Sequence record: AJ512676.1
DNA from: Enterobacteria phage P2-EC30
Direction: 5' to 3' (one strand)
Length of the DNA: 2,187 nucleotides
Part shown: piece after piece, positions 1 through 226 of the stretch
Layout of the letters: every line of letters starts with the position of its first letter
Numbering within the stretch: the stretch's first letter is position 1
The notes under the pieces: model-generated
Seen by the model: the letters and a program-made list of their open reading frames with translations, nothing else
Told to the model about the DNA's origin: nothing
The model's database searches: none
Translations under genes and position numbers: made by a program

Positions 1-30
1 AATCCTGAATGGCCGGAAATGCCGCAATAA
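1..30 (+). CDS. 3' end (partial) of a tail fibre assembly protein gene, P2 gpG-like; start lies upstream of the window
   Basis: Frame 1 reads aat cct gaa tgg ccg gaa atg ccg caa TAA, giving N-P-E-W-P-E-M-P-Q-stop. Tail fibre assembly proteins of lambdoid and P2-like phages end with a similar EWPxxP motif (recalled from memory, not searched). GC-normal codons (ccg, gaa) contrast with the AT-rich cargo downstream. Position immediately upstream of a tail sheath gene fits P2 synteny (H-G-[variable]-FI). Confidence 0.5.
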   Translation, partial: NPEWPEMPQ

Positions 31-92
31 GTTGTATGAGCTCTGGTGGGAGCTTACATATCTATGGCACAGAGTAAAGCCTAATTTGACAG

Positions 93-120
93 TCCGCTCT
101 GTGCCAGAGGCGGACGTTTT
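93..120 (+). terminator. Candidate weak rho-independent terminator or hairpin downstream of the tail fibre assembly gene
   Basis: TCCGCTCTG (93-101) can pair with CAGAGGCGGA (105-114) with one bulge and a 3-nt loop, followed by ACGTTTT (114-120). An alternative 9-bp stem GGCACAGAG (66-74) / CTCTGTGCC (97-105) with a 22-nt loop overlaps it. The T-tract is short, so this is weak. Confidence 0.3.
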
Positions 121-171: not shown

Positions 172-226
172 TATTGTAAAATCCGACGCATTCATTGATT
201 TACGGAAACTTGGCGTATTGTAAAAT
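172..226. repeat. Two exact copies of the 11-mer TATTGTAAAAT (172-182 and 216-226), 44 bp apart start to start, in the AT-rich region upstream of the cargo gene
   Basis: Direct reading of the sequence; both copies are identical on the + strand. Each contains a -10-like TAAAAT hexamer. Function unknown: could be tandem promoter elements or regulator-binding sites. Confidence 0.6.

Follow-up and report, generated by a model that had tools for sequence, protein, structure and literature searches.

Nilsson, Karlsson and Haggard-Ljungquist are said to have described, in Mol Biol Evol in 2004, lysogenic-conversion cassettes flanked by inverted repeats at the Z/fun locus of P2-like coliphages. That 2004 work on Z/fun cassettes is cited in PMC3448106. 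In phage P2-EC67, whose Z-region is deposited as AJ512685, gene G is followed by a left inverted repeat, an AT-rich cargo, a right inverted repeat and gene FI, and the cargo has its own predicted -35 and -10 elements directly after the left repeat. The C repressors of the P2 family bind direct repeats set at whole helical turns, 22 nt apart in P2 and 34 nt apart in WPhi; the P2 O1 half-site is the 8-bp GTTTAGAT, the distance being 22 nt centre to centre, and O1 and O2 flank Pe (PMC1904263). A further described system is the defence gene PD-T7-3, which according to passages of the original report was discovered in ECOR30 (Vassallo et al. 2022, PMC9519451). Passages of a later preprint rename it DARNA and describe a HEPN RNase with the motif R117x4H122 whose activator is phage SSB-bound ssDNA and whose mode of action is abortive infection (bioRxiv 10.64898/2026.02.22.705581).

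We analysed a stretch of 2,187 nucleotides of Enterobacteria phage P2-EC30 (AJ512676.1), referred to below in its full length as the window, in which a preliminary description had pointed to a repeated 11-mer upstream of a cargo gene. The window, read here on the + strand, opens with the 3' end of the tail fibre assembly gene G, which is of P2 type (1-30; annotated by RefSeq for the identical locus of E. coli ARS-C101), and closes with the start of the tail sheath gene FI (2159-2187; RefSeq annotation), so that the cassette is located between G and FI, the Z/fun position of P2-like phages. Its AT-rich foreign DNA is bounded on both sides by the inverted repeats of this hotspot. The left one (31-121) was delimited by alignment with AJ512685, of which bases 3-115, annotated as "left inverted repeat", align base-for-base with window positions 3-115; the right one (1945-2031) aligns to the "right inverted repeat" of the same record at 1255-1345, and window positions 83-112 are 80% complementary to 1945-1974. 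GC content in 100-nt windows is 20-38% inside the cassette, leader and gene included, as against 44-48% in the flanks. The left repeat contains a terminator-like hairpin with its core at 92-115 (-15.3 kcal/mol), followed by GUUUU and ending at 120, which would insulate the cargo from the phage late operon. A strong intrinsic terminator was detected by the terminator scan 5' of the tail sheath gene (2034-2054; -20.5 kcal/mol, z = -4.8). The order of elements is thus that of P2-EC67, whereas cargo and leader sequences differ and P2-EC67 has no TATTGTAAAAT. Furthermore, the promoter annotated in P2-EC67 lies 10-45 bp past the repeat and the 11-mers considered here lie 50-105 bp past it.

The cargo gene (412-1779, 455 aa; its RefSeq start is likewise 412) is DARNA, formerly PD-T7-3, a HEPN RNase and abortive-infection defence protein. 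The PADLOC profile PD-T7-3 matched the protein with E = 3e-168 over profile positions 3-429 of 432; a Pfam search of the same protein gave no significant match. The sequence RHLSAH from residue 117 corresponds to the R117x4H122 HEPN motif, and F6, N33, R98, K201, K204, E347, F368 and W406, the residues mutated in the DARNA preprint, are all present with the same numbering. A ribosome-binding site, GGAGA (403-407), was read from the sequence 5 nt before the ATG. An in-frame ATG at 364 was considered as the true start and discarded, since Salmonella lacks this ATG and has an interrupted frame there. A hairpin with a perfect 12-bp stem (1816-1847; -16.3 kcal/mol, z = -7.2) lies 37 nt beyond the stop codon and has no U-run; Salmonella retains the stem but has another loop, and the hairpin probably marks the 3' end of the DARNA transcript or stabilises it.

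The published work on DARNA/PD-T7-3 (PMC9519451; bioRxiv 10.64898/2026.02.22.705581), as far as its relevant passages go, concerns the same protein and a functional clone that contains the native leader. Table S2 of PMC9519451 gives the PD-T7-3 clone as the ORF 286951-288318 flanked by 444 bp and by 371 bp; in either orientation, therefore, at least 371 bp of upstream DNA were cloned, a length that includes both 11-mers in every E. coli context examined. The destination vector is described there as being without an upstream promoter (Vassallo et al. 2022, PMC9519451), and passages of both sources state that the construct defends MG1655 "from its native promoter" (PMC9519451; bioRxiv 10.64898/2026.02.22.705581). 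Defence from a promoterless vector with at least 371 bp of upstream DNA therefore implies a promoter within the leader, most likely in 101-411 given that the hairpin ends at 120. We infer that the ECOR30 fragment carries exactly this leader, since it is near-identical in 13 of 13 complete E. coli genomes that have the whole leader, with 92.9-100% identity over 121-411 and at least 98.6% in 12 of the 13. Hence the DARNA promoter most likely lies within a defined leader of about 290 bp (121-411) that moves with the gene between prophage types. The searched passages and supplementary tables of the two sources hold neither a promoter map nor a mention of the repeat (PMC9519451; bioRxiv 10.64898/2026.02.22.705581).

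By comparison of loci, the leader travels with the DARNA gene across contexts. In Rac-like lambdoid prophages a DUF977 gene and a TehB-like gene enclose the segment from about 65 or 92 to 1966 at 99.2-99.7% identity, the leader itself being identical, in strain F2_407_2_2 the cassette adjoins IS2, and Salmonella enterica has a diverged cassette (protein 91% identical) beside an integrase and a glycosyltransferase, with recognisable remnants of the left and right repeats. The cassette consists of a single gene and holds no regulator gene; as it also occurs outside P2, it therefore does not depend on a P2-specific factor. The left hairpin and repeat together with the right remnant (TGACAGTC ... 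GACTGTCA) have been carried into at least four contexts, namely the P2-like Z/fun locus, the Rac-like prophages, the Salmonella island and the IS2 site. The remnants were located at 62-121 and 1945-1974 in the window, at 3975-4030 and 5850-5880 in locus L002, at 2140-2215 and 4035-4065 in L007 and at about 2470 in L023. Compensatory change was observed in the hairpin stem, which reads TCTG/CAGA in P2, CCTG/CAGG in Salmonella and, with a G-U pair, TTTG/CAGA in Rac. That the repeats are carried along with the cassette would be in keeping with the idea of site-specific recombination at the Z/fun locus.

Several carriers of the cassette were found to be disrupted. In four complete E. coli genomes (I3, WEM25, E89 and 1217KP) the start codon is the exact site of an IS3-family element (409-414; loci L077 and L079), which parts the DARNA gene from its leader and ribosome-binding site. 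FORC_082 has an IS1 end directly at position 234 (junction 233/234; L003), just past the second copy of the 11-mer, and its coding sequence is cut to 406 aa; one more genome retains 899-1966 only. Altogether about 6 of 15 carriers are disrupted, and such frequent disruption might be expected for a toxic abortive-infection RNase. A further variable spot is the heptamer GCATAAT (273-286), present in 1.5 copies in the window and in 4.5 copies (+21 bp) in CUPF12 (L022, about 2650-2690), the corresponding 8 bases being absent from Salmonella. From these copy numbers the spot, which lies between the candidate promoters and the gene, appears prone to slippage.

The two identical 11-mers had been described as 44 bp apart and upstream of the cargo gene, and both points hold: TATTGTAAAAT is present exactly at 172-182 (copy 1) and 216-226 (copy 2) on the + strand, 44 bp from start to start, and both copies lie within the leader of the prophage cargo gene. 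Their placement on the same face of the helix is only approximate, for the spacing is roughly four turns but amounts to 4.2 turns, an offset of about 70 degrees. The identity between the copies ends at the 11-mer, with differing bases on either side; Tandem Repeats Finder called nothing at 172-226, and a local alignment of the two neighbouring 55-nt halves recovered no more than the 11-mer as its best match. A larger degenerate tandem duplication with a unit of 40-44 bp, including GATTTAC at 197 and 237, was rejected on the same Tandem Repeats Finder and alignment results; GATTTAC is not conserved in Salmonella. As to the suggestion that the 11-mer be sought elsewhere in the prophage, no further exact copy was found in the window or in the 32.8-kb prophage. 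With one mismatch allowed, the prophage gave one match, inside a gene, against 0.5 expected.

The preliminary description had also held that the repeat exceeds what AT-richness would readily give, which was too strong. In 2000 dinucleotide-preserving shuffles, an exact 11-mer repeat no more than 60 bp apart arose in 5% of the shuffled windows (P about 0.05), and one anywhere in the 291-bp upstream region arose in 4% of the shuffles of that region. The window holds three exact 11-mer direct repeats (172/216, 387/973 and 887/958), the shuffled windows 1.9 on average, with P(at least 3) = 0.31. With up to two mismatches allowed, TATTGTAAAAT gave five matches against 3.4 expected. The other two, GTTAAATATTT and AAAAAATACTT, at 387-397/973-983 and 887-897/958-968, lie in or beside the coding region; exact 11-mer repeats are therefore common at such composition. 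More than 120 unrelated viral contigs contain two TTGTAAAAT words at a distance of 25-45 bp, and because of this number of unrelated matches the scan is uninformative beyond indicating that such pairs are common. The 172/216 repeat is thus real and only borderline unusual, even before other features that might have been flagged are allowed for. These figures favour pure coincidence, in which neither RNA polymerase nor a regulator uses the copies and the promoter lies elsewhere, for example at 101-129 or at TATAAT 338-343; we regard this explanation as unlikely, yet as a credible contender.

Promoter candidates in the leader were scored with a rough weight matrix of consensus frequencies, so that all scores are only indicative. 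Both copies contain TAAAAT (177-182 and 221-226), which matches TATAAT at five of six positions and has the A at position 2 and the T at position 6 of a sigma-70 -10 element. Copy 1 may serve as the -10 of TCAACA-17-TAAAAT (154-182; score 7.3) and copy 2 as that of TTTACG-16-TAAAAT (199-226; score 7.0), both reaching 9/12 in the consensus scan; the -35-like partners, TCAACA with a spacing of 17 bp and TTTACG with one of 16 bp, match at four of six positions each and are weak, with scores within chance. Copy 2 also holds TTGTAA (218-223), the putative -35 of TTGTAA-17-TACACT (218-246), which has the second best score (7.9). The highest score in the window and in Salmonella alike belongs to GTGCCA-17-TATATT at the junction of inverted repeat and cargo (101-129; 9/12; score 10.0, with GTGCCA-17-TAGACT at 9.9 in the aligned position in Salmonella), a result that again fits coincidence of the two copies. 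A perfect TATAAT at 338-343, nearer the gene, is without a -35 partner. In shuffled leaders the mean best score was 7.9; the promoters based on the 11-mer, at 7.0-7.3, fall below this mean, two other candidates score higher, and given the shuffled best no single candidate is compelling. The leader is nevertheless dense in promoter-like sites, since five of them score at least 6.7 against 1.7 expected from shuffles.

Tandem sigma-70 promoters are known from other genes, gal P1/P2 being an example. The leader resembles such an arrangement in that two -10-like hexamers with -35-like partners lie on one strand upstream of one gene; unlike it, the sites here are putative only, they score at chance level and the second element is not conserved. 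The copies had been proposed to be duplicated -10 elements, and of this proposal the presence on both of TAAAAT with a -35-like partner at 17 or 16 bp is borne out, while the scores are at chance level and the hexamer of copy 2 is lost in Salmonella. If the promoters were truly tandem, both TAAAAT would be -10 elements, with two transcription starts separated by about 44 nt; the second promoter would have arisen in the E. coli lineage, where it would raise or diversify DARNA expression in the lysogen. Both sites passing the 9/12 scan with the conserved A and T of the -10, and the promoter activity of the leader fragment, argue for this arrangement. Nevertheless, both scores lie within the chance range for the composition, a -10 does not require the five additional identical bases (TATTG), and copy 2 reads CGGTAT in Salmonella at the hexamer; we therefore hold true tandem promoters to be unlikely.

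A single diverged orthologue of the leader was found, that of Salmonella, with 68% identity over 121-411. The leaders of five Salmonella loci are identical to one another, so that conservation is judged on the thin basis of two independent leader lineages; variation within the E. coli leaders is too small to judge that of the repeat. Copy 1 matches in Salmonella at 10/11 positions (TATTGTAAATT) but copy 2 at 6/11 (GATTGCGGTAT), which is below the leader average of 68%, and the pair is therefore not a conserved unit. Among the 11-nt windows of the leader, about 17% match at 10/11 or better, as copy 1 does, and about a third at 6/11 or less, as copy 2 does. In this one diverged lineage the copy 1 hexamer TAAAAT becomes TAAATT, with TTGATC at 16 bp (TTGATC-16-TAAATT, score 5.5). 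The copy 2 hexamer, at which no aligned Salmonella site was found, becomes CGGTAT, conservation there being limited to ATTG and the downstream ATTGAACAT. The aligned counterpart of 218-246, TTGCGG-17-TATACT (score 9.9), is among the top two sites of the Salmonella leader, its relative position being kept. No second copy of its own variant of the 11-mer was found in the Salmonella leader. The block that includes copy 1 (161-182, 19/22) ranks among the better conserved ones of the leader, which suggests some constraint and speaks against pure coincidence.

As a separate observation, the best conserved part of the leader is the block 356-411, with 89% identity to Salmonella; the leader as a whole has 68% and the initial 19 bases of the coding sequence have 79%. 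This block includes the ribosome-binding site and, from its conservation, may hold a translation-control or proximal promoter element. Additional diverged leaders were sought in several collections. A genome-contig protein scan gave three loci with upstream DNA unrelated to this leader, the sequence of one locus breaking off 62 bp ahead of the gene, and homologues with 76-80% protein identity (Ewingella, Aeromonas, Enterobacter, Rahnella and metagenomic) have nothing in common with it upstream of about 398. Viral and metagenome scans with a conserved leader 19-mer gave near-identical copies only (L020, about 97%; L035, 100%), and the phage and plasmid collections gave matches to the left inverted repeat only.

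It had further been suggested that the copies are paired binding sites for a regulator, an idea that lost ground on several counts: copy 2 is not kept (6/11), the prophage has no further copy of the word, and the cassette both functions and spreads outside P2. As a paired operator, the 11-mers would be half-sites for a dimeric or oligomeric protein, such as a P2-type C repressor, a host regulator or H-NS, controlling a toxic RNase. The repeats share with the P2 and WPhi O1-O2 operators their direct orientation, a P2-like phage as host and a roughly whole-turn spacing, and binding of P2-family C repressors to direct repeats at whole turns (PMC1904263) is a precedent for such control. They differ in that the operators consist of 8-bp half-sites 22 or 34 nt apart, whereas the 11-mers are 44 bp apart and unrelated in sequence, are absent from the switch region and lie within a cargo that also lives outside P2. 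A P2 C-type operator was accordingly rejected: GTTTAGAT bears no relation to the 11-mer, which is missing from the C/cox switch of the prophage, where the cox/C intergenic region has a different repeat, GCTyCTAATG, instead. Neither were both half-sites found conserved in Salmonella nor was the word found at a repressor-controlled phage promoter or elsewhere in the 32.8 kb.

No support was found for a phage-repressor operator. The AT-richness of the cassette (20-38% GC) counts for a paired operator in so far as AT-rich DNA is typical of H-NS targets, and by this analogy H-NS or another nucleoid protein might plausibly bind here without need of an exact repeat. Against a paired operator stand the lack of a regulator gene in the cassette, its occurrence in non-P2 contexts and its function in MG1655. 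A minus-strand ORF of 36 aa (276-166) spanning both copies was likewise dismissed, as stop codons break its frame in Salmonella. Two further candidates were discarded: no Ogr-type late promoter element (TGT-N12-ACA) is present on the + strand, and a structured RNA gave no Rfam match at E up to 1. Overall, a paired operator is highly improbable. Hardly more probable is a function of the exact duplication itself, either through a host protein that occupies both 11-mers and holds DARNA at a safe basal level or through a recent second promoter in E. coli that raises defence expression relative to the Salmonella allele.

The reading that we prefer, tentatively and at not quite even chances, is that the 11-mers are AT-rich promoter-type stretches in the leader of a defence gene that matter at most as pieces of sigma-70 promoters. 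The cassette is self-contained, consisting of the left inverted repeat with its terminator hairpin, the leader of about 290 bp (121-411), DARNA/PD-T7-3 and the right inverted repeat. Transcription of the cargo, shielded by the 92-115 hairpin, would start at one or more sigma-70 promoters of its own within the leader. Copy 1 would contribute a conserved -10-like TAAAAT. Copy 2 might act as a lineage-specific second -10 (TAAAAT) or, through its conserved TTG, as the -35 TTGTAA of the TACACT/TATACT candidate. Which of these hexamers RNA polymerase would use is suggested by sequence comparison. The exact 11/11 identity of the copies is most likely specific to the E. coli lineage and coincidental.

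The defence gene, the prophage hotspot and the inverted-repeat architecture were already known, and the repeat is of little importance alone; the useful results concern its context, namely the identity of the cargo and a defined leader. How a toxic abortive-infection RNase stays tolerable to its host is a fair question, to which nothing at this locus points to an unusual answer. For studies of DARNA expression, the two copies of the repeat offer two obvious targets for promoter mutagenesis.
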